The notes beneath the pieces were generated by a model. It did no database searches. It had not been told where the DNA came from and was given only the letters and a program-made list of their open reading frames with translations. Shown here piece after piece: positions 47,697-61,147 of a DNA stretch of 64,000 bases. The stretch's first letter is position 1. The number at the start of each line of letters is the position of its first letter. Source of the DNA: Candidatus Methanimicrococcus labiotermitis (GTDB taxonomy: Archaea > Halobacteriota > Methanosarcinia > Methanosarcinales > Methanosarcinaceae); contig WRCE01000003.1 of assembly GCA_009784005.1 (NCBI GenBank), positions 10,519 to 74,518 of the forward strand. The letters run 5' to 3'. The translations under genes were made by a program, and so were the position numbers.

Positions 47697-49115
47697 TCAA
47701 ACCGCCGCTGCCGGCTGCCCTCTTATTAAATTCTCTTCATTTTCCATTGCCGTCAGCCTCTTAAACTCCCGATAAACGAAAATGAAAGCGACCGCCGCTG
47801 AAATGCCGTCGGCGATCGGCCCCGCGTACAAAACGCCGTCTAAGCCAAAGTACAGCGGCATGACAATCACAAGCGGGATCAACAACAAGACCTGACGGAT
47901 CATTGCCAGTAAAATGCCTTTGTATGATTTGCCGATCGCCGTAAACAGAATAGAGGCGGCGGGCTGGATACCGATGATGATCATCATGAACAAATAAATC
48001 CGGCAGAACCTGACGGCGAATTCAAAGTATAATTCACTGCCGCCGCCGAAAATTTTAATGATCGAAAGCGGAAAAAGCTGAAAACACAGGAATGCGATCA
48101 GCGAGATAAACATTGATACTTTAAGAACCAATTTGAAAACTTCTTTGACGCGGCCGTAATTTTTAGCGCCGTAATTGAATCCCGCAATCGGCTGCCCGCC
48201 TTGAGAAACGCCGATGATGACGGCAATAAAAATCATGCTGACCTTGGAAATGACGCCGGTGACGGCGAGCGGAATTTCGCTGCCGTAAACAGAAAGGCCG
48301 CCGTAATAAGCCACCGTGTTATTCAAAAGAATCTGAACGGCCACCATGGAAATCTGATTCAAAAAGCTGGAGGCGCCGAGGTAAAAAATCATCTTGGTAA
48401 CGGATCGGTTCAAAACAAAATCTTTCTTTTCCAAAACAACCGATTTAAACCGCGTAAAATAAAGCACGGCGATTAAAAAAGAAACAAACTGGCTGATAAC
48501 GGTCGCCCAAGCCGCGCCGGCAAGGCCCATATTCAACCCGAAAATAAAAAACGCGCTCAAAACAACATTCAAAAAAGCGCCGGCCAGTAAGCAATACATG
48601 GAATATCTCGGGCTGCCGTCGGCGCGAATAATGCTGCTGGCGCCTGTAGAGAAAATCAAAAACAACATCCCAAACGACGTAATGGTAATGTATTCAAACG
48701 CCAGCGGAAAAACAGCGTCCGTCGCGCCGAATAATGTCACGAGCTGTTCCAAACACAAATGAATAACAACAAAAACGAGGACACCGGAAGCCGTCAATAG
48801 AAAAATAGAATTCCCGACAACCTTTTTAGCTCGTTCCTTATTGCCGGCGCCGAGACAAAGACTAAAATTTGAAGCGCCCCCGATTCCGAAAAGCAACCCG
48901 AGAGCCATTGCGATGATAACAAGCGGAAAAGCGACATTCGTTGCCGCGTTGCCGAGCATGCCGACACTGTGCCCGATGAAAATCTGATCAATAATATTGT
49001 AAAAAGCGCCGACAAGCATTGCAATGACGCCCGGAACCGCAAACCTAAACAGCAATTTTTTGACATCTTCCGTTCCGAGGATATTTTCTCTCGTATTTGA
49101 TTTCGTCTCGCTCAT
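47697..49115 (-). CDS. MATE family efflux transporter
   Basis: 472 aa, 12 predicted TM helices, with a typical MATE N-terminus (...LLFRFAVPGVIAMLVGAFYNIIDQIFIGH). Confidence 0.88.
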   Translation of the reverse strand: MSETKSNTRENILGTEDVKKLLFRFAVPGVIAMLVGAFYNIIDQIFIGHSVGMLGNAATNVAFPLVIIAMALGLLFGIGGASNFSLCLGAGNKERAKKVVGNSIFLLTASGVLVFVVIHLCLEQLVTLFGATDAVFPLAFEYITITSFGMLFLIFSTGASSIIRADGSPRYSMYCLLAGAFLNVVLSAFFIFGLNMGLAGAAWATVISQFVSFLIAVLYFTRFKSVVLEKKDFVLNRSVTKMIFYLGASSFLNQISMVAVQILLNNTVAYYGGLSVYGSEIPLAVTGVISKVSMIFIAVIIGVSQGGQPIAGFNYGAKNYGRVKEVFKLVLKVSMFISLIAFLCFQLFPLSIIKIFGGGSELYFEFAVRFCRIYLFMMIIIGIQPAASILFTAIGKSYKGILLAMIRQVLLLIPLVIVMPLYFGLDGVLYAGPIADGISAAVAFIFVYREFKRLTAMENEENLIRGQPAAAV

Positions 49116-49499
49116 ATCTGTCGCCGCCGGCGCCGAAGGTCATTAATGGTGTTTTTCCGTAAACGAAACAGACAAAACCGAAGTAATATATAAAGCGAAC
49201 TGATGTGAAAAGAACAAAAGGAGCGTATTAAAGTAATAAAAATAAAAAAAATAAAGGCCTGCCGAGTGTGCATCAACTTATCCAAACGCCTTTGAGTCAG
49301 CGAGTTGATAATTGTTGTTGATTAAGCATGGCAGGAATTATTAAACGAGGTTCCTCTTAAAACTATATATACGTTTTTATATACGTGGAATTTTTAGGGC
49401 ATTGAAGTACCGATTTAACTTGCCTTTCGTGCAAAGCAATGATGCTCCATATCTAGACAAAATAAACTAAATCAAAATAAAACGGCGGCAAACTTCAAA

Positions 49500-49790
49500 T
49501 TACTCTTCATCGAGCAATTTATCCAAAACCGCCGCTGCGTTTTCAAATTCTTTTTCGTCCTCAATATCAATTAACTCATAATCGTCGCCGGTTTCTTTGT
49601 AGCCGTAAATAATAACATCATCGGAGTCCAACGGAGCCAAAGCAATGTATTCTTTACCGTTGGCTTCAAAAATGCCGATGACTTCACATTCTATTGTTTC
49701 ATCATCTATTTCAAGGAAAAATGTTAGGTCTTCGGGGTTATCGCCGCAGCTGCAGCTGTTACATTCTTTGTGGTCGTGGTTGTGTTCCAT
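49500..49790 (-). CDS. DUF1292-like small acidic protein
   Basis: 96 aa, very acidic. ...CEVIGIFEANGKEYIAL.P......VIIYGY......YELIDIEDEKEFE resembles DUF1292. Confidence 0.6.
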   Translation of the reverse strand: MEHNHDHKECNSCSCGDNPEDLTFFLEIDDETIECEVIGIFEANGKEYIALAPLDSDDVIIYGYKETGDDYELIDIEDEKEFENAAAVLDKLLDEE

Positions 49791-50080
49791 GTTACTAAAC
49801 CTCTTATTTTATAGGAATTTATAAGATGTAATTGAATACCGAGTTATATATTTACTCTTATGTAACCTGAATTAGATTAATACTTTCGCCATGCAAGATC
49901 TAGAATTAAATTCAAAGACATTATTAAAATACGATAGAAGTTGTTCCATTACCTGATTTTTTTACCTCGACAAGAATTTATATTTAATAATTCTTCTATT
50001 CTTGTATTGTGCGTTCAAACGTGCTAAGCGATTGAGGTGCGGGAATTAGAAAGGAATACGAGAAACGGATTTCGATTCAA

Positions 50081-51334
50081 ATGGATTCAGAATGGTTGAC
50101 TCCCAAAGAAGCCGGAGTTAAATGGGGAATAAAAACGAGGCGCGTACAAGCACTTTGCTTAAAGGGGCAAATAAACGGTGCGGTTCGCATAGATCGATTT
50201 TGGTTAATTCCTAAAAACACTCCAAAACCCATTGATAGTCGAACGAAAATCAAAAAGCAATTACATAGTCAAGTGAATGAAATTGATACAGTCAAAGATA
50301 ATAATAAACCACGATTAATTTCATTATTCTCTGGTTGCGGTGGTCTTGACCTTGGTTTTGAAAAGGCGGGATTTGAGAGAGTGTGGGCTAATGACTTTGA
50401 TTCAGATGCACAAGCTGTTTATACCCGTAATCTTGGTAAAATAGATGGGCGGGATATATTAAGCGTAGATGAAGACGATATTCCTGAAGGGGATATATTA
50501 ACAGCTGGATTTCCCTGTCAACCATTTTCTAATGCTGGGAACCGTAAAGGTGTTCATGATTCTAGGGGTATGCTATACAAGGAATGCCTTCGAATTATTG
50601 AAAGTAAAATGCCAAAGGTTATTGTATTTGAAAATGTAAAAGGATTATTGTCAACAAAATATATTGATGGGCGCAACTTGGTTGACGTCATTAATGAAGA
50701 TTTGTCAACAATTGGAGGCGTGGGTTACAATGTTGTTCATAAACTTCTAAACGCTGCTGACTACGGCGTTCCACAAAACAGGCAAAGAGTTTTTTTTGTT
50801 GGGATAAAAAAAGATTTAAAAATTAATTTTGTTTTTCCCGAAAAGCAAATAAAAAATAATTTGACAATTCGGAATGTTCTGGAAATGCCCAAAGATTTAC
50901 CCAATCAAATTGATTGGGGGTTGTCACCCCAAGCACTTGAAATGATTGAATACATACCAGAGGGTGGTTCTTGGAAAGATATTCCTTATGAGCAATTAGC
51001 GCCTCGTTTTCAACGAATAAGAGATGATATGAAGAAATATCGCTCGCCTAATTTTTATAGACGTTTTTCGCGTGATGAAATTAACGGAACAATTACAGCA
51101 TCGGCTCAACCCGAAAACTGTGGTATTATCCACCCGACCGAAAATCGCCGTTATACGATTCGTGAAATTGCTCGAATACAAACTTTTCCAGATGATTTCC
51201 TATTTATTGATGACACACCAAAAAACATTACAGCAATGTATAAAGTCATTGGAAATGCCGTGCCCGTAATCCTAGCTCAGAATATAGCCTCTTCGATTAT
51301 GGAACAAGTTTTCAAAGGAGAACAGGCATGTTAA
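50081..51334 (+). CDS. DNA (cytosine-5)-methyltransferase with an N-terminal helix-turn-helix (excisionase/MerR-like) domain
   Basis: C5-MTase motifs I LFSGCGGLDLGF, IV GFPCQPFS, VI FENVKGL, VIII QNRQRVFFVG and X IGNAVP. The N-terminal ~50 aa (WLTPKEAGVKWGIKTRRVQALCLKGQI) look like an HTH. Confidence 0.9.
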   Translation: MDSEWLTPKEAGVKWGIKTRRVQALCLKGQINGAVRIDRFWLIPKNTPKPIDSRTKIKKQLHSQVNEIDTVKDNNKPRLISLFSGCGGLDLGFEKAGFERVWANDFDSDAQAVYTRNLGKIDGRDILSVDEDDIPEGDILTAGFPCQPFSNAGNRKGVHDSRGMLYKECLRIIESKMPKVIVFENVKGLLSTKYIDGRNLVDVINEDLSTIGGVGYNVVHKLLNAADYGVPQNRQRVFFVGIKKDLKINFVFPEKQIKNNLTIRNVLEMPKDLPNQIDWGLSPQALEMIEYIPEGGSWKDIPYEQLAPRFQRIRDDMKKYRSPNFYRRFSRDEINGTITASAQPENCGIIHPTENRRYTIREIARIQTFPDDFLFIDDTPKNITAMYKVIGNAVPVILAQNIASSIMEQVFKGEQAC

Positions 51335-52896
51335 TGAATACCGATAAAGCATATCTTTTTGGTTTGATAATCGGTGGTGGGATTTGGCGAAACAACGAAG
51401 ACGGATTCATAATCCACCTCCCGTATAGGAAATGGGGTTCATATGACCAGAATCCCAGACGTGCCTCTCAAATATCAGGAGACATTGTACAATTTTTAAA
51501 CCCATTGTTTAGAAACATTTACGGCCTCAATATTTCTTTTGATGGAACTGCTCGCGGTGATTGGAATATTTTGTTTGAGGGAGATTTGACAGAGTTGAAA
51601 TCCGATTTGCAGTCATACGGTATTGAATGCGAAGGCGAATTGCGTAGTACTGCAAGTATTGGTGGGATAATTGCTGATTTATTTGATGAAAATATGAAAC
51701 GGAGATTTATTGCAGGACTTGCCGATACCATAGGTAGCACAAATAAAAACCACCGGCGATTTTCAGCTGAAATCCAAACTTTATCGTTTGAGTTAAAAGG
51801 CTTTAATTTCTCATTCGTTTGTGAGTTGTGCCGCCTTTTGTATAGTGTAAACTGTTTACCCGATCAAATTCTGTGGAACCATCCCAACTTCCAATCAGCA
51901 AGTGACTCTTACTATACGAAATGGAATAAAGGTACCAAACTCCGCATCCAACTTGATCAATATGCTAAATTCGGAGCGTTTGCTTTCAAAACAAAGGCGG
52001 AATCATCTATCGAAAATCGTAGCTTGCAGCAACAAACGCATAGTGCAGTTTCGTGCCCCGAACGCGAAATTCGAGCGAAAACTTCCTGCTTTCATCCCGG
52101 AGAGAATGATAAAAGGTTGCCTGATTGCATCCGTGGAGGACATTATCTCCATAATCGCCATGTCTGTGCTGTTATGGGATGTGAAAATGCACCATATGAT
52201 ACTATTAGAGGCTTATTTTCAAATGTTGGAGATTTAATTATTCCTTTCCCAATATTGTGTAAAAATACAATACAGAAAATAGAAGAAATAATTAAAGAAG
52301 AGCCGTTGCTTGCTAATCGAGAGTATTCTATTGCAAACGTTAGTGTAAAATCATTATACGAACTTTATAAAGCAGACCATAACGCATTATTATTTGGAAA
52401 CAATGCTAATAATGGGTACCCTATTGCCAAAATAATCCAAGGCATATCTTATGTGATTGCTGATGAAAATGAATTAAATGGCGCACGCCCCAAAGGCAAC
52501 TTTGAAAAGATTGTAGAACATCGCATACATCATGAAATGAATAATAAATACCCAAATATTCTTTCTAGGTTTGAAGTTCAAGAGTCAAATTTTATTATTG
52601 CTGAAAATACTGAAGGAGTTTCCTATACAGTAAATGCTGATGAGCTAAATAAACACCCTAAAAATAAATCACTGATAGACTTAGGGCGTGATTTGTCTAC
52701 CGCCACTGGCCTTATGGTCGAATTCCGTAAACCTGATTTGTTAACACCTTTAGTAATCACTGGAAATGGTCGAGGTGTATTGATTGGTGCGCATAACCCG
52801 AGTGTTTATGAAAAACTTGTTACGATTGCCCCGGATAATGAATATAAATTGTGTGTCCGCCCAATAACTGAAGGAGATTTGCGTAATGCGAAATGA
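51328..52896 (+). CDS. Hypothetical 522-aa protein with two degenerate LAGLIDADG-like motifs; candidate nuclease or specificity partner of the upstream methyltransferase
   Basis: KAYLFGLIIGGG (aa ~7-18) and RRFIAGLADTIGS (aa ~124-136) resemble LAGLIDADG motifs at roughly the spacing expected of a double-motif LAGLIDADG enzyme. The gene overlaps both neighbours (7 nt and 11 nt). The functional assignment is tentative. Confidence 0.45.
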   Translation: MLMNTDKAYLFGLIIGGGIWRNNEDGFIIHLPYRKWGSYDQNPRRASQISGDIVQFLNPLFRNIYGLNISFDGTARGDWNILFEGDLTELKSDLQSYGIECEGELRSTASIGGIIADLFDENMKRRFIAGLADTIGSTNKNHRRFSAEIQTLSFELKGFNFSFVCELCRLLYSVNCLPDQILWNHPNFQSASDSYYTKWNKGTKLRIQLDQYAKFGAFAFKTKAESSIENRSLQQQTHSAVSCPEREIRAKTSCFHPGENDKRLPDCIRGGHYLHNRHVCAVMGCENAPYDTIRGLFSNVGDLIIPFPILCKNTIQKIEEIIKEEPLLANREYSIANVSVKSLYELYKADHNALLFGNNANNGYPIAKIIQGISYVIADENELNGARPKGNFEKIVEHRIHHEMNNKYPNILSRFEVQESNFIIAENTEGVSYTVNADELNKHPKNKSLIDLGRDLSTATGLMVEFRKPDLLTPLVITGNGRGVLIGAHNPSVYEKLVTIAPDNEYKLCVRPITEGDLRNAK

Positions 52897-53458
52897 AGTA
52901 TCCTATTACCCAGAGATACAGACTTTTATCGAAGCGCAATTAAGAAGCAATTTTTTGGCGAGTAACCGCCGCGAATTGTATGTATATTGGGGAATCGGCG
53001 AATTGAAAAACAATCTCCAACGTATCATTATCGAGCACCCCGACAAATGTGCTTGCGTTTCAAAATTCGCAGAGCGTGTTCCACCGTTAAGTCTTGATAT
53101 ATTTGCTCTGATTACAGATGGGATAAAATTCGAACTTTTGATTTTAGAGATCAAACTTTTGAATGCCGTAGGGTTGAAAGAATGGTCACAACTTGTGGGA
53201 TATTGTTTTGTATCAGGTTCAAAATATGGGTTGCTTGTCAATATCAACAACGGGGCCAGTCCACGCTTAACTCAATTATTGCATACTGAACATCATATAT
53301 CTCACATACAGACAATAGTTAATAGTGAGCCTTGTGAACATATGCTTGGATTCATGCAATGGAATGACCTTACCCAAAATTTTGAATATAGCAATTTCGG
53401 TTTTATTAAATCGTTATCGGAATTAAGTGATAGACTCGCAGCCGAATTTTCAAAATAA
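52886..53458 (+). CDS. PD-(D/E)XK-like nuclease-fold protein (candidate restriction endonuclease subunit)
   Basis: PPLSLDIFALITDG...FELLILEIKLL gives a D...ExK arrangement followed by ...SQLVGY. It is the last gene of the operon. Confidence 0.5.
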   Translation: MRNEVSYYPEIQTFIEAQLRSNFLASNRRELYVYWGIGELKNNLQRIIIEHPDKCACVSKFAERVPPLSLDIFALITDGIKFELLILEIKLLNAVGLKEWSQLVGYCFVSGSKYGLLVNINNGASPRLTQLLHTEHHISHIQTIVNSEPCEHMLGFMQWNDLTQNFEYSNFGFIKSLSELSDRLAAEFSK

Positions 53459-53749
53459 ATTCAGCAAATAAAAACATTTATTAAACGTGACAAACGAACC
53501 TAATACCACATAAAAAAAGAAAACGTAATGGAAAATCCCTCTTATCTTCAATCAAGAAGTGCATAATTTCATGACTCCATTTGCATTTGGAATTATGGTG
53601 ACAATGAGTTTTGTTTACTAAACGAGAATATAAAAAGATCATTGAAAGTGGCACCCAATTCTCATTATTAATGAAAAAATATTTCTAATATTATAAGAAA
53701 AATGGATACAATTCAATGAATATATTATATCGGTTGGATTCATTATAAT

Positions 53750-54670
53750 TTAACTGATTTTTTTAACTTCTGATTCGAGTTTCTCAAGATTCTTCTTATG
53801 TTTCCGAATATTTTCTCTTATTTCTTTGCATTTCTCAGAATTAAAACTAACATTCTTTTTTTTATTTTTGAAGTATTCAATGCCATTTTCATTGCATAAA
53901 ACAGAATGAGCGAAAATATTTCGAGGTATTATAATTTCATTATGATATTCCCTTGAAAAATCATCCAGATCTAACTGATTTAATATTTCACCAATTGCTA
54001 AAGATTGTTGATATGACGAAAAGAGAAGAGGATCGGCCATCAAATCATCAATCGAACATTCGAGTTTGCACTTTTCAAAATATTTGGACTTGGACCTGAG
54101 ATGAGTGGCAATTTCATCAAATATTTTTTTTGATAATTGTTCTGTATCTAACTCAGCGCATTTTGTACATGAATTGATGATTTCAAAAGCCGCAGCGTCT
54201 AATGAGCTGGTTTCATGCATAATCATACCGCGCATGGCAATTATATGCTGAAATTTTTGAATTGTCAAATCAATAAGTTTAATAATTTCATTATAAACTG
54301 ACTTATGATGAGTTTCAGAAGAGAATTTGGAAGTTTCTAAAAATGTGCTACGATTAATTTGACCAATATCCCTTAATTTTTTTGCAGTATAGAATAAAAT
54401 TTCTGTGGAAATGTTTGATTGGCGAATAAGTTGAATTATTTGATCACCGTTTTTTCCTGTGGATTCATCCTCCACTAGATTATAGTCTATAAGCATGAGA
54501 TCAAAATCCTCATTTAGGGATCGCTCAAAATCGTCAGAATTTGAAATTGAGATAATGGATGGTTCAAATCCATGATTAGATAAATGCACTTTTACTTTTT
54601 CAAGCCAGTCATCATCAATAAAATCATTAATACGATCATCTAACCATAGAATGTTATACCTTAGTTTCAT
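53750..54670 (-). CDS. Receiver (CheY-like REC) domain protein with a C-terminal HEPN-like domain (RNIFAH motif)
   Basis: REC features: acidic pocket ILWLDD, phospho-acceptor candidate D62 in DLMLIDYNL, and T95 in LFYTAKK. The C-terminal half is all-alpha and carries Rx4H as R250-N-I-F-A-H255 (complement 53906..53923). It overlaps the kinase gene by 4 nt. Confidence 0.6.
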   Translation of the reverse strand: MKLRYNILWLDDRINDFIDDDWLEKVKVHLSNHGFEPSIISISNSDDFERSLNEDFDLMLIDYNLVEDESTGKNGDQIIQLIRQSNISTEILFYTAKKLRDIGQINRSTFLETSKFSSETHHKSVYNEIIKLIDLTIQKFQHIIAMRGMIMHETSSLDAAAFEIINSCTKCAELDTEQLSKKIFDEIATHLRSKSKYFEKCKLECSIDDLMADPLLFSSYQQSLAIGEILNQLDLDDFSREYHNEIIIPRNIFAHSVLCNENGIEYFKNKKKNVSFNSEKCKEIRENIRKHKKNLEKLESEVKKIS

Positions 54671-57324
54671 AGTCCCAACTCTATAATAAAAACAGTTTTT
54701 ACATTTTCTTCAGAAGAAACCGTTATTTTTCCTTTCATATCTTTTTGAATCGTTGATTTTATTATATACAATCCAATACCGGATCCGTCTGTCGTTGTAA
54801 AACCTAAATCAAAAATTTGATCTAGATGCTCCGCGGCAATTCCTTTGCCGTTATCTTCAACGGCTATCCTCAATCCTAAATCTGTAACATTAAAATCAAA
54901 ATAAATGTCACTAGCGCCTGCTTTTTCTGCGTTATTAATGAAATTATCAATAAGAATTGTAACCTCAAGAGGGCTAAATTCTTTTACGAACTCCTTATTG
55001 TTATCTGTTAAATGGATCTTTAATTTTGTATTTAGAAGCGGTTCAGAAGATAGGTAAATTTCTTCAACATATTCCTTTATGAATTGAACAAGATCTCTAG
55101 TTATTGAATTGGAGTTTACGCCGAAATTTGCTCGTGTAATGAAATTCGATACGGATTTAATTTTGGAGGATTCTTTCATGATTGTATAAATTTTAGCTAA
55201 ATCTTTTTCTGAAACATTTTTACTCCTCAATAAAGAATTAGCATTCTCAATAATCCGGCTAGAAGAATGACCAATGTTGTGTTGAAGTCCCATTATGTGT
55301 TCTTTGTCCATCCCAATTAGAGAACTTTGAAACAATCTTCTCTTTTTCTCTTCATTGAATTTCACAACGGCTTCTTCTCTTTCTTTCTCTGCATTTGCCC
55401 TTTTTTCTGATTCGTCCTTAGCTTTTTGTTCTGCCTCTTTTCGAGCAAACTCTTCTTCACGCTTTTTAAGCTCTGCTTCTCTTTGAGCAAGTTCCGCTTT
55501 TTCTCGTGCTTCTTCTTCTTTTTGTCGTTCTGTTTCAGCTTTCTTCCTAGCTTCTTCCGCTTCTTTTCTCTTTTGTTCTGCTTCACGCTTTTTAAGCTCT
55601 GCTTCTCTTTGAGCGAGCTCTGCTTTTTTTCGTGCTTCTTCTTCTTTTTGTCGTTCTGTTTCGGCTTTCTTCCTAGCTTCTTCTTCCGCTTTCTTTTGTT
55701 CTTCTGCTTCTATTCTCTTTTTTTCTTCCTCAATGAATTTGCGTTCAGTTTCCATTTTTTGATTTAATAATACCACATACTTTTTTTCAGCATCCTCAAC
55801 GCTTTTAAACAATTCTGAATTATTTGTTTTCGTAGCAATTTTTGAAATGTCTTTAAATATAGATGGATTTACTTTTTCAAGATTATCCTTAATTATTGAA
55901 AACAAATCTTTATCATACTCTAAAATTTCAATATCTTTATTGTCAGATAGTTTTTTTATGATTTTTACAAGATGAAACCGACTTCCCAGATTCTTTTGAA
56001 TTATAGACGTGTCTTCTCGATTCTTGTCACCATCAAGAAGTTCTTTCTCCGTGAAAAACCCCTTGGACTCCCATCCAAGACCCCATTGAACAAACCCAAT
56101 ATACCTTTCCAACGGTTTAAGGGATTTTTCAAAAAATAATTCTTTAAGAATGAGGTATTCGGGTGTTTCTACAAGACCCCCGTCACGACTCGATGCTTCA
56201 CGGAAATAAGATGAATCGGTTATTAATTCGATTCGACCAAAAAGATCCCTTGTACCCAAAAAACGCCGATTTCCTTGTTGATGCCTAAAATCAATGCCTA
56301 AGCTATCGTCTCCAAGAGCTCCGTATGGAGAAACTCTAAATCCATTTTTAAAAAGGAATATGGAGCCAAACCTAACCGGCTCAATACCCATTGTTCTCGT
56401 AAAATTTGTTTTTGCAATAGTATTTAAATAATAGATATGAAACGAAGCGTCATTTAAAAAAGAACTATGAATATTTTTTTCACGAACTTTATAGATTAAT
56501 GTTCCACGGTCAACCAATTCGGTTGTAATCCACTCATCGGACATTGACGTTTTTATTTGAGTTGTTTTTAAGTTCAATTTTTCAAAAATAAAATTATTTA
56601 CCGGACCATTGACCTGAGTTAAGTATCGACCAGTTCCTTGGCGATGAATTCTCTTACGGCTAGACTTACCTTTATCATCTTCTGAAAGGTCAGATGTACT
56701 AGTAAGCCAAATTTCAAAATCAAGAGAATCAAAGGGATTAATAAGCTTTTCCAACGATTGTTTTAATTCAATTTTTCTCTCATAATCCCACTTGGAACGT
56801 AAAGATGAGATTTCAAGAACAACTCCGCTATCGAAATAATTAGAGACTGTCTCATGATTAACTTTTATTTGATAAAATTCTTTTTTCGGGTCTTTTTCGA
56901 ATGAATCCCAATCAACATAAACTCTTTCGGTAAAATCAGTACCTTTTTTGCGTGATGTTAGCACTAATTTTTGACCTACTCGATCACAAGAAAAACGTCC
57001 GATACCTTTGGAACCAGCATAATATTTGCGCTTAATATTATCACGATAACTGGTATTTTTTTCAGAGGGCAAATCTTCAGTTCCATCTATTTTTGCAGAA
57101 TATGCAACAAATAACCATTTATTAATAATATCCTCTAAGGACATGCCCTTTCCATCATCCTTGATAATAATTTTATCAGGTTCAAAAATGATTTCAACTT
57201 TTTTTGAAAAAGCATCATATGAATTTTTTACAAGTTCAAAGATTGCAATGAAATCATCAGTAATTAAATCTTTACCGATGATACTTTTTAATGCAGAACT
57301 AACTTTAAAAGACAATTCATCCAT
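54667..57324 (-). CDS. Dual-GHKL protein: N-terminal MORC/Hsp90-type ATPase module, charged coiled coil, C-terminal histidine-kinase module
   Basis: N-terminal module: ELVKNSYDA (N box), IKDDGKGMS (G1), GSKGIGRFS (G2). Residues ~520-650 are a K/E/A/R-rich coiled coil with an internal ~41-aa duplication. C-terminal module: H-box-like LQHNIGHSSS, N box IDNFINNAEKAG, G1 VEDNGKGI, G2 GSGIGLYIIK. Confidence 0.72.
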   Translation of the reverse strand: MDELSFKVSSALKSIIGKDLITDDFIAIFELVKNSYDAFSKKVEIIFEPDKIIIKDDGKGMSLEDIINKWLFVAYSAKIDGTEDLPSEKNTSYRDNIKRKYYAGSKGIGRFSCDRVGQKLVLTSRKKGTDFTERVYVDWDSFEKDPKKEFYQIKVNHETVSNYFDSGVVLEISSLRSKWDYERKIELKQSLEKLINPFDSLDFEIWLTSTSDLSEDDKGKSSRKRIHRQGTGRYLTQVNGPVNNFIFEKLNLKTTQIKTSMSDEWITTELVDRGTLIYKVREKNIHSSFLNDASFHIYYLNTIAKTNFTRTMGIEPVRFGSIFLFKNGFRVSPYGALGDDSLGIDFRHQQGNRRFLGTRDLFGRIELITDSSYFREASSRDGGLVETPEYLILKELFFEKSLKPLERYIGFVQWGLGWESKGFFTEKELLDGDKNREDTSIIQKNLGSRFHLVKIIKKLSDNKDIEILEYDKDLFSIIKDNLEKVNPSIFKDISKIATKTNNSELFKSVEDAEKKYVVLLNQKMETERKFIEEEKKRIEAEEQKKAEEEARKKAETERQKEEEARKKAELAQREAELKKREAEQKRKEAEEARKKAETERQKEEEAREKAELAQREAELKKREEEFARKEAEQKAKDESEKRANAEKEREEAVVKFNEEKKRRLFQSSLIGMDKEHIMGLQHNIGHSSSRIIENANSLLRSKNVSEKDLAKIYTIMKESSKIKSVSNFITRANFGVNSNSITRDLVQFIKEYVEEIYLSSEPLLNTKLKIHLTDNNKEFVKEFSPLEVTILIDNFINNAEKAGASDIYFDFNVTDLGLRIAVEDNGKGIAAEHLDQIFDLGFTTTDGSGIGLYIIKSTIQKDMKGKITVSSEENVKTVFIIELGL

Positions 57325-58531
57325 TCAATTCACCCATTTCTTTTAACGCTAATCCTGCAAGCTCACCGAACAGGGGTGGAATTGCATTTCCAATTTGTGT
57401 GTATCGAGGAACTTCTACTTTCCTCAAAAGCCCCCCTGTCGTATATTTTGCTTTTATTTTATAAGAATCTGGAAATGATTGAATCCGAGCGTATTCTCTT
57501 ACAGTTAAAATACGTGGTTCCGAGTAATGGATATAGTCATCGGGATGTGTTGTCAGTGTAGGACATTTGGAAGTACCGTCCAAGATTGAAATTCCTCTCT
57601 TTTTTACCCCCCACTCATCTCTTTCTTTACTAGTCAATCTTTTATTCCGAGTAGGATATTTCTCCAAAAGATTAGAAAATAACAATTTAGTTTCAGGGTT
57701 ATGTTTTGCAAAACTGTGACTATCTGCCACATCCCCCTTTTGTACGGTATTCGATCTCATTAATTTTTGATATGAACTTTCAGCGCTATTGTACCTACCT
57801 GCACGGAAATTCTTACGATCAGGGCAAGGTGTTGTACCATTTCTCTCAAACAAATCCGATATTGCTTCCGCTACTGTGACAGTTTCAGAGATGCCTTTCA
57901 TTGAAAGAAAATCACTTTTCATGTCATTAATTAACATAAAAAAATCCTTAGCTTTTTTGGATGAAGATTTTTTTAGTACGCCTACTAAAATAAAACGCTT
58001 GCGTCTTTGAGGAATGCCATAGCTTGAAAAATCCACTACATCTGATTCGACATCGTACCCCATATCTTTTAAAGTCTCCACAACAATTTTAGAATAAGGA
58101 ATACCTCGTTTGTCCTCTTTGACAAAAGAATAAGTAAAACCCATAACATTTTCAAAGAAAATAAGTTTGGGGCGAACTAAATCAATAAATTCAATATATG
58201 AATAAACGAGTTGATTTCTTTCATCTTCTTCAATGCGTTTGCCAGCCATTGAAAACCCTTGACATGGCGGGCCACCAGCAACAAGATCGACCTTCCCTCT
58301 TAATGCCATCAAATCATTTCTGTTTTTTTTCAATAATTCGTTGATGTCATGATTAGATTCTTCAAGCCAATCTGGAAAATTGAAATGCTTCCGCTCATCA
58401 ATTAAGTTTGCTTTAAGAGTGGAGAAAGCAAAGGGACTTTTTTCAACTGCAAACAGACCAGACCATCCGGCGTTGTGCAAACCTAGAGAAAGACCCCCAC
58501 ATCCCGCAAATATATCAATATAATTGGGCAT
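57317..58531 (-). CDS. DNA (cytosine-5)-methyltransferase
   Basis: Motifs I IFAGCGGLSLGL, IV GGPPCQGFS, VI FENVMGF, VIII QRRKRFILVG and X IGNAIPP. Overlaps the downstream dual-GHKL gene by 8 nt. Confidence 0.9.
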   Translation of the reverse strand: MPNYIDIFAGCGGLSLGLHNAGWSGLFAVEKSPFAFSTLKANLIDERKHFNFPDWLEESNHDINELLKKNRNDLMALRGKVDLVAGGPPCQGFSMAGKRIEEDERNQLVYSYIEFIDLVRPKLIFFENVMGFTYSFVKEDKRGIPYSKIVVETLKDMGYDVESDVVDFSSYGIPQRRKRFILVGVLKKSSSKKAKDFFMLINDMKSDFLSMKGISETVTVAEAISDLFERNGTTPCPDRKNFRAGRYNSAESSYQKLMRSNTVQKGDVADSHSFAKHNPETKLLFSNLLEKYPTRNKRLTSKERDEWGVKKRGISILDGTSKCPTLTTHPDDYIHYSEPRILTVREYARIQSFPDSYKIKAKYTTGGLLRKVEVPRYTQIGNAIPPLFGELAGLALKEMGELNG

Positions 58532-58622
58532 ATGACTATAATAAGTATGGGAAGAATAAAAAGATACCGGTAAGGACTATTTCTGAAAAATATAAAAAAG
58601 AAAAAGTAACGGGAAATCCCCA

Positions 58623-60089
58623 TTACTTCAAATTCTCTTTTGCCCATTCATATCCGGCTTTCAAAATCTGCAGATTCAGCTCAATCAATTTGGGCCTGTC
58701 CGCGAATGATTCCGCAATCGCCTTTTCAAATTCTTTTTCGGTCAAATCGACTTGGCCGAGTGACAAAATAACGCCGAGCATAACCGTGTTCACGGCTTTT
58801 GCGGATCCGCTTTTCATTGCGATGTCAACGGCGGGGACGCAATACGCTTTCACGCCGGCGGGCGGCGTGTAATTGTCAACGGATGAGTCGTAGATTAAGT
58901 AGCTGCCGGGGCCGACGTCTTTGTCAAACTTCTCAAGCGAGGGGCGGTTAAGCGCAACCAAGATGTCAGGCGTGTAAACGACGGGAGAGCCGATTGGGCG
59001 CGCTGACAAAACGACGGAACAGTTGGCTGTGCCGCCGCGCTGTTCCGGGCCGTATGACGGGTACCATGAGACGTTTTTGCCGCCGTAGATACCTGCCTGA
59101 GCCAAAATCGTGCCCATTGACAAAACGCCCTGACCGCCGAAACCGGCGATTTTTACCAAACACTTCTTAAAGTCCGGGTCAGGCGTTGCGTATTCAACGC
59201 TTTCGACGATGCCGAAAACTTCATCCAGCTTGGCTTTGGAGAAGTCACTGTCGGGGCGAATAAGCGGGGTGGTGTCAGCGATTCTGTCTCTGAAATTGCC
59301 GAGCGGGAATTCTTTTTCCACCTCGTTGTTGATGAAATCAATCGATTCTTTGGAATCTTGTCTCAAGTTGTTCGGGCAGCCGGCGAGGATTTCAACGAAA
59401 GCGTATCCTTTGCCGTCGCGCTGAACTTCAAGCGCTTTCTTAATAGCGATTTTTGCTTTTCGGATGTGTTTGATATCAGAAACCGACACGCGCTCGATGA
59501 AGACGGGCGCCGTCAGGTTGCTCAAAATCTCACACATGTGAAGCGGGAAACCGGTATAGTCAGAGTTTCGGCCTTCCTGACAAGTGGTGGTGATTTCACC
59601 GACAAGCGTGGTTGGGGCCATCTGACCGCCGGTCATGCCGTAAATTGTGTTGTTGACGAAAAAGACACACATCTTTTCGCCGCGGTTGGCAGCCTGAATC
59701 GTCTCGTTGAGGCCGATAGACGCCAAATCGCCGTCGCCCTGATAAGACATGACGACCGCGTTGTCACGCGCGCGGGAAATGCCCGTTCCGACCGCAGGCG
59801 CGCGGCCGTGAGCGGCTTGGACGTTGCCGATATCAAAGTAATAGTAAGCGAAAACGGCGCAACCGACCGGGCTGATTAAAACGCAGCGGTCCTGAATGCC
59901 GAGGTCATCAATCGCTTCACCGATCAATTTGTGGATGATGCCGTGGCCGCAGCCTGAGCAATAGTGCGTTGCCGTCGGCGCGGCGCCGCCTTTTCTGAGA
60001 TAAATCTCATTCATGCTGTCGGGTCTTTTGTATACCTTTTCCGAACCCGGAGCACTGCATTTTTTCTGAATTTCACCGGCCATTTTCAC
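58623..60089 (-). CDS. korB: 2-oxoacid:ferredoxin oxidoreductase, fused beta (TPP-binding) and gamma subunits
   Basis: The N-terminal half is a TPP-binding beta subunit (YCSGCGHG..., GDGD). The C-terminal ~190 aa are gamma-like ([14 protein letters not shown]...SYGPEQRGG). Confidence 0.88.
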
Positions 60090-61147
60090 ACCTTCCTGTT
60101 GTTCGCGATGTCGCGAATCTTTGCCATGACTTTCGTGGTTTCAATAACGTTTCCGCCGAGACGGTTGACCAAATCAACGGGGCGCTTGCAGCGAATGGCA
60201 AGCATGATGTCATCGCGCATTTGGCCCGCGCTCATTTCAACGGCAATAAATGTGACGTCGCGTTCGGCAATCTTTTGAATCTCTTTTTCCGGGAACGGGA
60301 AAAGCGTAATCGGGCGGAACAGACCGACTTTTAAGCCTTCTTTTCTGGCTTCGTCAACAGCGCTCTTGGAAATACGGCTGCTGATGCCGTAGGAGACCAA
60401 AACGATGTCTGCGTCATCCGTCATATATTCTTCAAAAAGCGGTTCTTTGTCGCTGATTTCCCGGTACTTTTTCTGAAGTTTTTCATTAAAAGCTTCCTGC
60501 TGCGCGAAGTCCAAGAAGATGGACGAAATCAGGTTTTTCTTGGTTTCTGTATTTCCCGAGACAGCCCAAGTTGTGTCAATGACGGGCGCAATCGCTTCTT
60601 TGGGGAAGACGACAGGCTCCATCATTTGGCCCAAAACGCCGTCAGACAGAATGATGACGGGGTTTCTGTATTTGAAAGCCAAGTCAAATCCTTTGTATGT
60701 CAAATCGCACATTTCCTGAACCGAATTCGGCGCCAGAACGATGCATTTGTAATTGCCGTGGCCGCCGCTTTTGACAGCTTGGTTGTAGTCCGCTTGTTCG
60801 GGGCCGATGTTGCCGAGACCGGGGCCCGCGCGCTGGATGTCAACAATCACTGCCGGCAATTCGGCGCCGGCCAAATAGGAAAGGCCTTCCTGCTTCAAAC
60901 TCATGCCGGGGCCGGCCGATGCCGTCAAAACGCGGTGGCCTGCTGCCGCCGCGCCGTAGACCATATTGATGGCCGCTTCTTCGGATTCCGCCTGAACCAT
61001 TTTGCGCCCGACTTTTGGGAAGTAATGTGACGCTTCGTGAAGAATTTCATTGGCGGGCGTAATCGGGTAACCGAAATAACAGTCGCATCCGGCATACATC
61101 GCGCCGATGATAACGGCCGTGTTTCCTTTAACCAATCGAACAGACAT
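60086..61147 (-). CDS. korA: 2-oxoacid:ferredoxin oxidoreductase alpha subunit
   Basis: [30 protein letters not shown] is typical of KorA/PorA-type alpha subunits. Overlaps korB by 4 nt. Confidence 0.9.

Follow-up and report, generated by a model that had tools for sequence, protein, structure and literature searches.

A methylase-linked two-component cassette in Methanimicrococcus whose response regulator carries a predicted HEPN-type output domain

What does a response regulator do when its output half belongs to no annotated family? The locus studied here raises this question with a protein of 306 amino acids from Candidatus Methanimicrococcus labiotermitis, in which a receiver domain is followed by some 190 residues that a first, sequence-only reading had taken for a HEPN-like RNase domain. 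All coordinates below refer to the window, that is, the whole stretch of 64,000 nucleotides that was analyzed. A database protein entitled 'response regulator [Methanimicrococcus sp.]' matches the product with 100% identity, and more than 400 homologues exist, each about 300 amino acids long. The features of the gene on which the argument depends are the following.

53750..54670, minus strand: REC-HEPN gene, an intact open reading frame of 306 amino acids plus stop, the last gene of its cassette
54326..54670, minus strand: receiver (REC) domain, residues 1-115, from Pfam Response_reg, Foldseek, a profile search and conservation
54485..54487, minus strand: codon of D62, the predicted phospho-acceptor aspartate (LMLID62YN), from 68 of 68 sequences and a receiver alignment
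53753..54319, minus strand: C-terminal HEPN-like domain, residues 118-306, from the AF2 model and matches to HEPN-family profiles
54197..54235, minus strand: second conserved block, M146-R147-G148-M-I-M-H-E153-T-S-S-L-D158, from conservation
53906..53923, minus strand: motif R250-N-I-F-A-H255 (Rx4H, the R being followed by a polar residue), at the end of helix 239-254

The AF2 model, with a pLDDT of 86.7 for the full-length protein and 89.1 for the C-terminal domain alone, places the strands of the receiver at residues 4-10, 36-42, 58-62, 90-95 and 108-112, and shows no helix between β4 and β5, so that α4 is degenerate. Submitted to Foldseek at full length, the model finds the receivers of LvrB, CheY-like proteins, CpxR and ComE, with E-values from 3.6e-5 to 1e-3, all matches being confined to receiver domains; a profile search with the regulator also matches receivers in the PDB. 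The Pfam family Response_reg (PF00072) matches the window protein itself with E=0.003 and 18.1 bits, below its gathering score of 30.2, and it matches 101 of 116 relatives, at best with E=4.8e-12. All 68 of 68 sequences keep aspartate 62, which falls in the column of the acceptor Asp ('DLILTD') when the protein is aligned with solved receivers. D11 and D12 are each found in 65 of the 68, and conservation over the four residues D11, D12, D57 and D62 spans 96-100%. Position 95 is a threonine in 35 sequences and a serine in 33, with A96 next to it. After β5 (residues 108-112) no lysine is strictly conserved: K or R appears irregularly, with Arg frequent in the family at large. By this conservation and the Foldseek matches, the N-terminal domain is a true receiver, with a conserved acidic pocket and Asp62 as its predicted acceptor.

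The proposed catalytic motif lies where it was first located: residues P249-R250-N251-I252-F253-A254-H255 are encoded by 'cct cga aat att ttc gct cat', and checking the sequence confirms the codon of R250 at 53923..53921 and that of H255 at 53908..53906. It does not, as had been claimed, end the protein, since about 50 residues, a β-meander and a last helix, come after it. A motif so short must be compared with chance. Among 20,000 shuffled versions of the protein, 6.6% contain R[NDH]x3H at least once, and 69% contain Rx4-6H: the R[NDH]x3H string by itself is not beyond chance. The protein has three Rx4-6H strings, beginning at R147, R250 and R285. The candidates R147-x4-H152 and R285-x5-H291 were considered as additional HEPN motifs and rejected, H152 and H291 not being conserved beyond the closest subfamily. 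The RNIFAH motif is taken as real because it is conserved across homologues.

This conservation is deep. R250, N251, A254 and H255 are invariant both in 38 homologues with 40-64% identity and in 68 genome-derived homologues. Only six columns are invariant in 116 cluster representatives with 22-46% identity, namely Y94, R147, G148, R250, H255 and R285; at least 90% of these representatives also have N251. Variation at R250 or H255 had been named in advance as evidence against the motif; both residues are invariant in all three sets. The block from M146 to D158, in which E153 is present in 68 of 68 sequences and D158 in at least 90% of the 116, may, to judge by its conservation, supply the acidic/basic half of the active site that lies upstream. 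AF2 confidence dips there, and the conserved acidic residue of the domain departs from the usual HEPN form, Ex3[KR]. The least conserved region, at about residues 160-235, separates the motif helix from the conserved helix R147..D158.

In the AF2 model, the C-terminal domain consists of helices 121-169, 176-204, 219-232 and 239-254, a β-meander at 257-276 and a helix at 278-305. The helices that the sequence-only reading attributed to these 190 residues are thus present, but the domain is not purely helical, with strands at 257-261, 264-269 and 274-276. According to the predicted secondary structure, the motif closes helix 239-254 and is followed by a β-hairpin, then by the last helix, 278-305. 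In HEPN domains, the motif is situated at the C-terminal end of helix-3 and the start of the loop to helix-4 (PMC3710099), and the modeled succession of motif, hairpin and last helix, together with the place of the variable region, fits the HEPN description. The C-terminal 190 residues or so form a new family that is always fused to a receiver, with 718 clusters at 50% identity.

Is this family related to known HEPN domains? A PADLOC scan of 34 members gives 11 matches, of which 6 are to Csx1, CARF-HEPN, Csm6 or Cas13a. The best E-values for the C-terminal domain are 9.5e-5 and 1.4e-4 for Csx1 and 2.5e-4 for CARF-HEPN, all three within residues 27-157 of the domain, where about 0.003-0.009 such matches are expected by chance over the 34 scanned proteins. 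Among Pfam families, RiboL-PSP matches residues 31-145 of the domain with E=4.6e-4, MAE_28990 matches residues 37-171 with E between 0.0025 and 0.0027, the Swt1 model matches 10 of 116 members, and further HEPN matches come from Abi_2, HepT, Apea and Csm6_HEPN. Among the matches listed, only HEPN models recognize the domain. Altogether, eleven different HEPN models are involved, and they cover the same 100-135 residues wherever coordinates were obtained, about residues 147-290 of the protein. None of the Pfam HEPN matches reaches its gathering score, and the window protein itself has no HEPN match.

Structure comparison gives a different picture. The isolated domain, modeled at a pLDDT of 89, was compared by Foldseek, the check that had been suggested for it, and retrieves neither a HEPN structure nor any other, its best matches having E=1.9 in the PDB and E=0.33 in BFVD. 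Because Foldseek has low power on domains made of long helices, we regard this null result as a failure to confirm rather than as an exclusion; the HEPN fold of the modeled domain is not confirmed by structure search. A search of PDB sequences with the profile of the C-terminal domain and with two single sequences finds nothing relevant. A more specific identity was also tried. Aligned by hhalign with a Swt1-like HEPN family built from a gene neighboring one of the cassettes (locus L034), the domain gives a 21-column alignment at the motif, with P=0.017, which was rejected; a larger query alignment gives an off-register alignment elsewhere, with P=0.025, rejected as noise. Swt1-, Abi2- or MAE_28990-like identity, suggested by the form RNxxAH, was set aside too. 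No specific HEPN family is assigned, because the best statistical support points to the Csx1/CARF-HEPN and RiboL-PSP models. The initial proposal of a receiver fused to a HEPN-like output consequently stands in part: the invariant R250 and H255 and the recurrent HEPN matches speak for it, the sub-gathering Pfam scores and the Foldseek result against it. The profile matches and conserved residues lend partial support to the view that this new, previously unannotated family is of HEPN-type, RNase-like character.

The protein had been imagined as a stand-alone, compact effector. It is instead the third gene of a strictly conserved cassette, after a Dcm methylase and a GHKL histidine kinase, whose features in the window are the following.

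57317..58531, minus strand: C5 DNA cytosine methyltransferase, 404 amino acids, first gene of the cassette (Pfam DNA_methylase, 1.2e-56)
54667..57324, minus strand: soluble sensor histidine kinase, 885 amino acids, from Pfam HATPase_c_3 and HATPase_c and from NCBIfam
56095..57324, minus strand: N-terminal sensor/ATPase module of the kinase, residues 1-410, from Bergerat motifs and conservation
55451..55710, minus strand: in-frame 126-bp tandem duplication, about 2 copies, 89-94% identical, from Tandem Repeats Finder
55267..55281, minus strand: H-box Q681-H682-N-I-G-H686, with H682 and H686 in 68 of 68 sequences
54670..55107, minus strand: catalytic (CA) domain of the kinase, residues about 740-885, from Pfam HATPase_c and conserved boxes

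The order Dcm methylase, GHKL histidine kinase, REC-HEPN, with overlapping genes, is found in 61 of 62 loci, and a kinase gene is present at every locus with enough upstream DNA. In the window, the methylase overlaps the start of the kinase by 8 nucleotides, and the ATG of the REC-HEPN gene overlaps the kinase stop codon (ATGA, 54667-54670). The methylase, which PADLOC recognizes as MTase_II at 2e-78, is the best conserved of the three genes, with a median identity of 55% over its full length in 61 loci. This Dcm and kinase context argues for the biology of a restriction-modification-like, two-component defense module rather than of a lone effector. Most loci belong to Bacteroidota; the others come from Campylobacterota, Mycoplasmataceae, Paceibacterota, Acidobacteriota and two Methanimicrococcus. 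The GC content of the cassette is 33.7%, against 44-49% in its flanks. At other loci, integrases and ArdA adjoin the cassette, and at one locus a type I restriction-modification system is adjacent. A tblastn search of plasmids with the regulator returns zero matches. Taken together, the cassette looks like a mobile, restriction-modification-style defense system wired through a phosphorelay. Some cassettes have a separate small HTH gene upstream.

The kinase begins with a GHKL ATPase module of the MORC/paraMORC-like type; a KE-rich coiled coil leads from it to a DHp H-box, and the CA domain occupies the C-terminus. Pfam finds HATPase_c_3 at residues 26-149 (2e-22) and HATPase_c at residues 788-883 (2.3e-22, 80 bits). 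The NCBIfam model of BbrUII/HgiDII restriction enzymes matches residues 29-208 with E=5e-18 and 65 bits, against a cut-off of 550. The Bergerat motifs of the N-terminal module, E30xxxN34xxD37, D56xGxG60 and the lid G104xKGxGRF, are kept in 66-67 of 68 sequences, the exceptions being alignment gaps or X, plus one G104D. This module shares 33% identity over 446 columns (E=1e-51) with a Dcm-linked GHKL kinase of a Stenotrophomonas plasmid. In the H-box, H682 is a likelier phospho-histidine than H686. The CA domain has its N box at N798, its G1 box at D824xGxG828 and its G2 box at G847SGIGL852, each in at least 90% of 68 sequences. PADLOC gives weak matches on the kinase, the best being to a type II REase model (E=6e-6), and identifies no system; no model of its defense library recognizes the regulator, and no Detocs (Dtc) model, which its release may not include, matched the cassette.

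We consider it fairly probable that the REC-HEPN protein is the effector of a horizontally mobile, three-gene, restriction-modification-like two-component module, which might operate as follows. The methylase would mark self DNA, and the N-terminal module of the kinase, a relative of the GHKL portion with which BbrUII/HgiDII restriction enzymes begin, would monitor DNA. Unmodified, invading DNA would trigger ATP-dependent dimerization of the kinase and autophosphorylation on H682, and the phosphoryl group would move to D62 of the regulator. Dimerization of the receiver could then be relayed through α5, continuous with the long helix 121-169, and bring two HEPN domains together. Their paired R250/N251/H255 motifs would form a composite, metal-independent RNase site, in which R147, E153, D158 and R285 may assist. 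The resulting cleavage of RNA would arrest the cell or destroy the transcripts of the invader, as in abortive infection. The kinase signal, the sign of the regulation (whether phosphorylation or its loss activates) and the RNA target are points that we purely infer.

A bolder statement, which we put forward only tentatively and would not be surprised to see fail, is that we are dealing with a restriction-modification system whose way of 'restricting' is through RNA: the cytosine methylation of DNA, by which the cognate and unusually conserved Dcm would mark self, would be read by a MORC-like sensor kinase, and a Csm6-like HEPN RNase would respond. Unmodified DNA of an invader would be reported by His-Asp phosphotransfer and lead to abortive infection or dormancy, and the module would have reached methanogenic archaea from donors resembling gut Bacteroidota.

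Several other explanations must be weighed against these. The domain could be HEPN-derived or HEPN-like and yet be no RNase: it might bind RNA or a nucleotide, act on another phosphodiester substrate, or serve as a dimerization or adaptor module that recruits another effector. Many HEPN domains are indeed non-catalytic (PMC3710099), the likeness to characterized RNases is weak, with E about 1e-4 at best, and sister systems have receiver proteins that lack an enzymatic domain and are followed by a separate nuclease, an HNH at locus L082. However, non-catalytic HEPN domains typically lose Rx4-6H (PMC3710099), whereas here deep divergence has left R and H unchanged throughout and N in at least 90%; moreover, no further conserved gene comes after the regulator, so that the cassette would be left without an effector. 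We judge this explanation unlikely. A little less likely to our mind is a winged-helix-like DNA-binding output, with helix 219-232, a 'recognition' helix 239-254 and a hairpin 257-269. The regulator would then be a phospho-controlled C-protein that tunes the methylase operon, R250, N251 and H255 contacting a conserved operator. The order helix, helix, hairpin in the AF2 model does resemble a winged helix, response regulators are mostly DNA binders, and one homologue (P0029) is named 'transcriptional regulator'; the unusual conservation of the methylase makes a conserved DNA site plausible, and the HTH gene upstream of some cassettes shows that regulation matters. Yet that HTH controller, where present, is a separate gene. 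Among the matches listed for the 116 members, no HTH, Trans_reg_C or winged-helix family appears, while HEPN families recur; and Foldseek finds nothing, although winged helices are abundant in the PDB and easily found. The residues that never vary lie on three helices far apart (R147-G148, R250/H255 and R285), an arrangement that suits an active site rather than a single recognition helix, and contacts to bases do not typically involve a histidine that is invariant.

The two remaining explanations concern the signaling chain rather than its output. If the receiver were not phosphorylated by the neighboring kinase but were a pseudo-receiver, or a cREC-like switch for a small molecule or nucleotide, the GHKL protein would chiefly be a MORC-like DNA ATPase. 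Weak matches to the cREC_REC family in 7 of 116 members, the unclear conservation of the β5 lysine, the degenerate α4 and the score of the window protein under the Pfam threshold are in keeping with such a switch, and kinase-independent receivers in conflict systems have been proposed in papers from the Aravind laboratory (PMC8195603). We nevertheless hold it to be quite improbable: conservation is 96-100% for the acidic pair, for the acceptor Asp and for the Thr/Ser of β4; the partner kinase has retained both H-box histidines without exception, with its N, G1 and G2 boxes complete; and at every locus its gene is translationally coupled to that of the regulator. The least probable explanation, to which we give hardly any credence, is an ordinary environmental two-component system, foreign to conflict, with the methylase as a coincidental neighbor or passenger. 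Database names go no further than 'response regulator' or 'CheY-like', and PADLOC, with no model for the regulator and weak matches for the kinase, does not contradict them. Against this stand the orthologous methylase, which accompanies the pair at 61 of 62 loci, in distant phyla as well as in archaea, the soluble kinase with its restriction-enzyme-like GHKL module, the atypical GC content and mobile-element neighbors of the cassette, and the statistical enrichment of a related family near restriction-modification genes (PMC8011034).

If the REC-HEPN protein is the effector of a defense module, the closest known design is that of Detocs, in which, as experiments show, phage defense can rely on a toxic effector gated by a His-Asp relay (10.1101/2023.01.24.525353). 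Both associate a histidine kinase with a response regulator that has, in place of the usual DNA-binding output, an enzymatic effector, toxic in Detocs and predicted to be so in the cassette. The effector domains of Detocs are exchanged between variants (10.1101/2023.01.24.525353), as outputs are among the sister systems of the cassette. The logic that we propose is also the same: the kinase would sense infection, His-Asp transfer would turn on the effector, and infection would be aborted. The components differ. The Detocs kinase DtcA has a TPR sensor, while the cassette kinase has a MORC-like GHKL module and no TPR match in Pfam; Detocs has a stand-alone 'buffer' receiver, DtcB, and no linked DNA methylase, while the cassette has a methylase and no second receiver gene. 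The Detocs effector DtcC is usually a PNP ATP nucleosidase, with REase, TOPRIM and TM variants; that of the cassette is not a PNP, and no HEPN variant is described in the Detocs report (Rousset et al. 2023, bioRxiv 10.1101/2023.01.24.525353).

The HEF_HK / Response_reg_2 systems (Bellieny-Rabelo et al. 2021, PMC8011034) are nearer in architecture, with a soluble kinase made of HATPase_c_3, DHp and HATPase_c, and an adjacent receiver-like gene. They are strongly linked to restriction-modification contexts and to a C-5 cytosine methylase, and an origin from paraMORCs has been proposed for them. The corresponding families, PF19191 and PF19192, have no match in the window proteins (E<=1), in the 116 relatives, or in the Pfam annotations of orthologous kinases. 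The H-box of the cassette reads QHQ/N-I-x-H, against H-E-F in HEF_HK, and its receiver matches the classical PF00072. Because architecture and linkage are the same, we treat the cassette as a sister family of these systems. Their report covers bacteria only, identifies no output or effector domain and mentions neither HEPN nor RNase; HNH_2 or Vsr genes commonly come after the receiver gene in their loci (PMC8011034). The kinase also resembles the BbrUII/HgiDII GHKL enzymes and the paraMORC restriction-modification systems, in which an N-terminal MORC-like GHKL ATPase stands beside a C5-methylase (Iyer et al. 2008, PMC2292703): it has the Bergerat fold, a catalytic-type Glu30 and an adjacent Dcm in 61 of 62 loci. 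But where BbrUII/HgiDII enzymes carry a DNA nuclease domain, the cassette kinase has a C-terminal DHp and CA, and would signal to a separate RNase-like effector.

As to the effector itself, Csm6 and Csx1, the CARF-HEPN ancillary RNases of type III CRISPR, have the same general plan, an N-terminal α/β sensor domain followed by a C-terminal HEPN-type domain with Rx4-6H, and activation through a sensor-driven rearrangement of the HEPN dimer is what we propose for the regulator. Their sensor is a CARF domain that binds cyclic oligoadenylate, in place of a predicted phospho-accepting receiver; the resemblance, with E about 1e-4, is weak, and the regulator has no structural match to them and no CRISPR context. 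Ire1 and RNase L, in which a kinase or pseudokinase is joined to a KEN domain, offer the precedent of a HEPN-type RNase controlled by dimerization, driven by phosphorylation or by nucleotides. Their KEN domain is classed as HEPN, and in Csx1 a β-hairpin directly follows the motif (PMC3710099), as in the model of the regulator. Ire1 and RNase L differ in being eukaryotic single polypeptides with a Ser/Thr-kinase fold, a circularly permuted HEPN and no His-Asp relay, and no sequence similarity to the regulator was detected.

Neither Detocs nor the 2021 report on paraMORC two-component systems linked to C5-methylases describes a HEPN output. If the REC-HEPN protein acts as proposed, the missing effector would be identified for a relative of those 2021 pairs of paraMORC kinase and C5-methylase, and aspartyl phosphorylation would become a third tractable gating of prokaryotic HEPN RNases, beside cyclic oligoadenylate (Csm6/Csx1) and guide-RNA pairing (Cas13). 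The cassette would be a second, mechanistically different immune pathway by two-component phosphorelay after Detocs, and the long-suspected sensing of DNA modification state by MORC-type GHKL ATPases would become directly testable. Should the cassette indeed restrict through RNA, a widespread module (more than 700 clusters at 50% identity) would join epigenetic self/non-self discrimination, two-component signaling and HEPN RNases. The analysis provides a functional hypothesis for thousands of proteins labeled 'response regulator', 'CheY-like' or 'hypothetical', and records that such a module has passed into an archaeon.

Sister systems combine the same kinase architecture with other outputs, such as a REC-only protein plus HNH, a REC plus unknown domains, and similar variants. 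In the window, the 126-bp duplication in the kinase gene results in a longer coiled-coil linker.

The regulator appears to belong to a two-component, defence-like module that joins a methylase, a MORC-type sensor kinase and a putative receiver-gated HEPN effector; the module is widespread, unannotated, and found here in an archaeon. The regulator ORF is intact, and its product matches, residue for residue, a MAG protein with the annotation ‘response regulator [Methanimicrococcus sp.]’. Its ATG overlaps the stop codon of the kinase gene, which overlaps the methylase gene. The three genes, referred to as the cassette, are:

53750..54670, minus strand: regulator (REC-HEPN), receiver followed by a HEPN-like C-terminal domain, 306 amino acids
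54667..57324: GHKL histidine kinase, 885 amino acids
57317..58531: C5-cytosine methylase (Dcm)

The sequence-only reading had described a receiver fused to a HEPN-like output ending in R250-N-I-F-A-H255, and its codon positions are right: R250 lies at 53923..53921 and H255 at 53908..53906, inside P-R-N-I-F-A-H-S. When the regulator is shuffled, R[NDH]x3H turns up in 6.6% of cases and Rx4-6H in 69%; a lone Rx4H string would be unremarkable on sequence grounds, and it is comparative evidence that makes the motif matter; the regulator holds three Rx4-6H strings in total. Residues R250, N251, A254 and H255 show no variation in 38 homologues (40-64% identity) or in 68 homologues taken from genomes. 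Across 116 cluster representatives (22-46% identity) just six columns are invariant, Y94, R147, G148, R250, H255 and R285, with N251 kept in at least 90%. Two other strings, R147-GMIM-H152 (window 54217-54234) and R285-ENIRK-H291 (window 53798-53818), were rejected as extra HEPN motifs because, although each arginine is invariant, the histidines do not hold up beyond the closest subfamily.

The N-terminal domain is a receiver, as had been claimed. Pfam Response_reg matches the window regulator weakly (E=0.003, 18 bits; gathering score 30) and 101 of the 116 relatives (best E 4.8e-12). The AF2 model of the full regulator (pLDDT 86.7) has the five receiver strands, and with it Foldseek retrieves LvrB, CheY-like proteins, CpxR and ComE receivers, with E from 3.6e-5. 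Functional residues are kept: D57 and D62 in 68/68 sequences, D11 and D12 in 65/68 each, and T or S at position 95, followed by A96; when solved receivers are aligned, D62 falls in their acceptor-aspartate column. Two features are atypical: the model has no predicted helix between β4 and β5, and the homologue alignment has no strictly conserved lysine after β5. In the model, α5 is continuous with a 50-residue helix entering the C-terminal domain.

Residues ~118-306 of the window protein receive no assignment from Pfam, NCBIfam or PADLOC. When 1.84 billion proteins were searched with a profile of this domain, 718 cluster representatives matched at E<=1e-3; of the 150 matches listed, almost every one is ~300 amino acids long with the domain at ~118-305, which points to a large family, nearly always receiver-fused among these matches. 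Its conserved blocks are M-R147-G148-x-x-M-x-E153-x-S-x-L-D158, E-I-I-x-x-R250-N-x-[FL]-[AG]-H255 and C281-x-x-I-R285, with ~70 poorly conserved residues between the first two. Modelled alone (AF2, pLDDT 89.1), the domain has helices 121-169, 176-204, 219-232 and 239-254, a three-stranded meander 257-276 and a final helix 278-305. Since helix 239-254 gives way to the meander, the motif falls at the C-terminal end of a helix, before a loop; in the model, this position and the neighbouring elements fit the HEPN description at the level of secondary structure only.

Scans were run on individual family members: 21 close members, 116 representatives and, with PADLOC, 34 C-terminal domains. The recurrent non-receiver matches are HEPN families. 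The 21 close members match MAE_28990 (3 members, best 0.0025), RiboL-PSP (4.6e-4), Csm6_HEPN (0.0022) and also Swt1. Among the 116 representatives, Swt1 is the second commonest family behind Response_reg (10 members, best 0.002), and Abi_2, HepT-like and MAE_28990 are matched by 2 members each. Six of the 11 PADLOC matches are HEPN-bearing CRISPR ancillary proteins, namely Csx1 (3), CARF-HEPN, Csm6 and Cas13a; at E=1e-4 the 34 proteins should yield ~0.003 chance matches, and 3 were observed, all to HEPN domains.

Profile matches of C-terminal domains to HEPN models: model, E, domain residues (counted from the start of the isolated domain), profile positions
Csx1 PDLC01687, 9.5e-5, 31-145, 37-133 of 152
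Csx1 PDLC01621, 1.4e-4, 27-138, 251-339 of 340
CARF-HEPN, 2.5e-4, 58-157, 275-365 of 376
RiboL-PSP, 4.6e-4, 31-145
MAE_28990, 0.0027, 37-171
Apea, 0.092, 57-158

The alignments with coordinates are domain-length rather than motif-sized, and run from the R147-G148/E153 helix to shortly beyond H255. All Pfam HEPN matches of relatives lie under the gathering score, and the window regulator has none. The C-terminal domain drew no match in the PDB by sequence or by profile, and hhalign against a genuine Swt1-like family, built from the gene adjoining the cassette in Croceitalea, gave noise only. The claim of a HEPN-like output is thus upheld by the invariant R250 and H255 and by the domain-length profile matches, but not by structure: Foldseek with the domain-only model found nothing, HEPN or otherwise, in the PDB (best E=1.9) or BFVD (best 0.33). 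We consider it likely, from these profiles, that the domain forms a new HEPN family, a divergent one whose nearest type is Csx1/Csm6. What the sequence-only reading saw was there, and its interpretation was in large part right; it missed the methylase and kinase.

The kinase begins with a HATPase_c_3 (MORC/paraMORC-type) ATPase, whose motifs E30xxxN34xxD37, D56xGxG60 and lid G104xKGxGRF are kept in 66-67 of 68 sequences, the rest being gaps or X and one G104D. It matches a BbrUII/HgiDII GHKL restriction-enzyme model weakly but clearly (5e-18). Further on come a KE-rich coiled coil, an H-box D-K-E-x-I-x-G-L-Q-H682-Q/N-I-x-H686-S-S-S-R with H682 and H686 invariant, and a complete CA domain. Within the coiled-coil linker, window 55451-55710 holds an in-frame 126-bp (42-amino-acid) tandem duplication (~2 copies, 89-94% identity), because of which the window kinase is longer than its relatives (about 756-874 amino acids); linker length might tune signalling.

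A regulator relative is encoded at 77 genome loci. Counting only the 62 with at least 3.7 kb upstream, orthologous Dcm, GHKL-kinase and REC-HEPN genes follow one another, abutting or overlapping, at 61. The exception (L047, 2193-4523) keeps kinase and REC-HEPN, but its methylase is divergent and no orthologous Dcm precedes; farther upstream lies a 776-amino-acid ORF only 29% identical to the cassette methylase. The methylase is the best-conserved gene (median identity over its whole length 55%; kinase 43%, regulator 40.5%), which suggests one shared target sequence. Plasmid kinases of the same architecture have different genes downstream.

Genes accompanying the plasmid sister kinases (L081-L084)
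Enterobacter mori: receiver with unrelated/unknown ~240-amino-acid C-terminal domain, after the kinase
Bacteroides finegoldii: receiver-coiled-coil protein, then HNH nuclease and N6-methylase
Stenotrophomonas: Dcm, kinase, 212-amino-acid receiver, then 226-amino-acid unknown protein (unannotated in PLSDB)
Agrobacterium: 439-amino-acid unknown protein, then DEAD helicase and EcoRII-N protein

Such modularity is expected if the position behind the receiver holds the system's effector; the sister kinases would then swap putative effectors.

The explanation we favour, and hold to be fairly probable, is a relay in which a kinase sensing absence of the Dcm mark gates a HEPN RNase through D62. The MORC-like module would sense DNA without the mark; ATP-driven dimerisation would act through the coiled coil on the DHp domain, H682 would be phosphorylated, and the phosphoryl group would pass to D62. 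Receiver dimerisation, transmitted via the continuous α5/helix 121-169, would build a composite site from two R250/N251/H255 motifs, assisted by R147, E153, D158 and R285, and RNA cleavage would halt growth or remove invader transcripts. The reverse sign, with phosphorylation holding the RNase off, is possible.

A winged-helix-like DNA-binding output is quite improbable: no HTH family is among the matches listed, Foldseek finds no winged helix, and the invariant residues are dispersed over several helices. That the domain is HEPN-like but non-catalytic, or acts differently, seems unlikely; the output carries an invariant HEPN-type catalytic motif. The kinase, whose H-box and CA domain are intact, is coupled to a receiver that keeps its acceptor site, and we would be surprised to find the receiver a kinase-independent switch. 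Least credible, next to the gene order described, is an ordinary two-component system with a methylase adjacent by coincidence.

Detocs is a validated defensive His-Asp relay with swappable toxic effectors, no HEPN variant being reported (10.1101/2023.01.24.525353). Unlike the cassette, with its MORC-type kinase and methylase, Detocs combines a TPR kinase with a buffer receiver and a PNP effector, and lacks a methylase. Bellieny-Rabelo et al. 2021 (PMC8011034) described HATPase_c_3-DHp-HATPase_c kinases beside receiver-like genes and C5-methylases in 628 bacteria and proposed a paraMORC origin, naming no output domain and no archaea. Since their domains PF19191 and PF19192 do not match the cassette family, we treat the latter as a sister family. 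Functional analogues in which a HEPN RNase is joined to a sensor domain are Csm6/Csx1 and Ire1/RNase L; a receiver-HEPN fusion is unmentioned in the HEPN survey, and full-text literature searches returned none.

Across the 77 loci, hosts are mostly Bacteroidota, with Campylobacterota, Mycoplasmataceae, Paceibacterota, Acidobacteriota, Ignavibacteriales, one gammaproteobacterium, one Clostridium MAG and two Methanimicrococcus archaea. In the window, cassette GC is 33.7% vs 44.5% and 49.2% in the flanks; the cassette lies in an AT-rich island (~49000-58600; 31-39% GC per kb vs 42-54% in flanking kb) between a MatE transporter gene (47697-49115) and pyruvate:ferredoxin oxidoreductase (POR) genes (58623-61147), which would fit recent horizontal transfer into the archaeon. 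Ca. M. odontotermitis has the cassette at the same POR-adjacent site, with ~75% nucleotide identity. Elsewhere it directly follows integrase genes, lies near ArdA, or adjoins a type I R-M system. Four IMG/VR contigs (L088-L091), predicted viral, carry it; their REC-HEPN protein is 45% identical. In three of the four, the gene is near an end of the contig. The contigs may represent host fragments or prophage boundaries instead of phage cargo.

Convergent with the cassette is a second methylase cluster, absent at the orthologous Ca. M. odontotermitis locus and probably a separate type II R-M system:

50081-53458, plus strand: 417-amino-acid C5-methylase with N-terminal HTH; 522-amino-acid protein without family; 190-amino-acid protein with weak PD-(D/E)XK match (PDDEXK_3, E=0.003)

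In an uncultured Croceitalea (L034, 9190-9933), a 247-amino-acid Swt1-like HEPN protein (PF18731, E=2.7e-5; the family carries RNTxAHGR) is encoded immediately downstream of the cassette, a second HEPN gene alongside REC-HEPN. Eight small ORFs in tandem, each of 60-64 amino acids and regularly spaced (~190-240 bp), occur ~3 kb downstream of the cassette in Tenacibaculum maritimum (L085, 13090-14892); they are flanked by two LuxR-type response-regulator genes, adjoin a Tae4 amidase gene and might form an array of peptide precursors or immunity genes.
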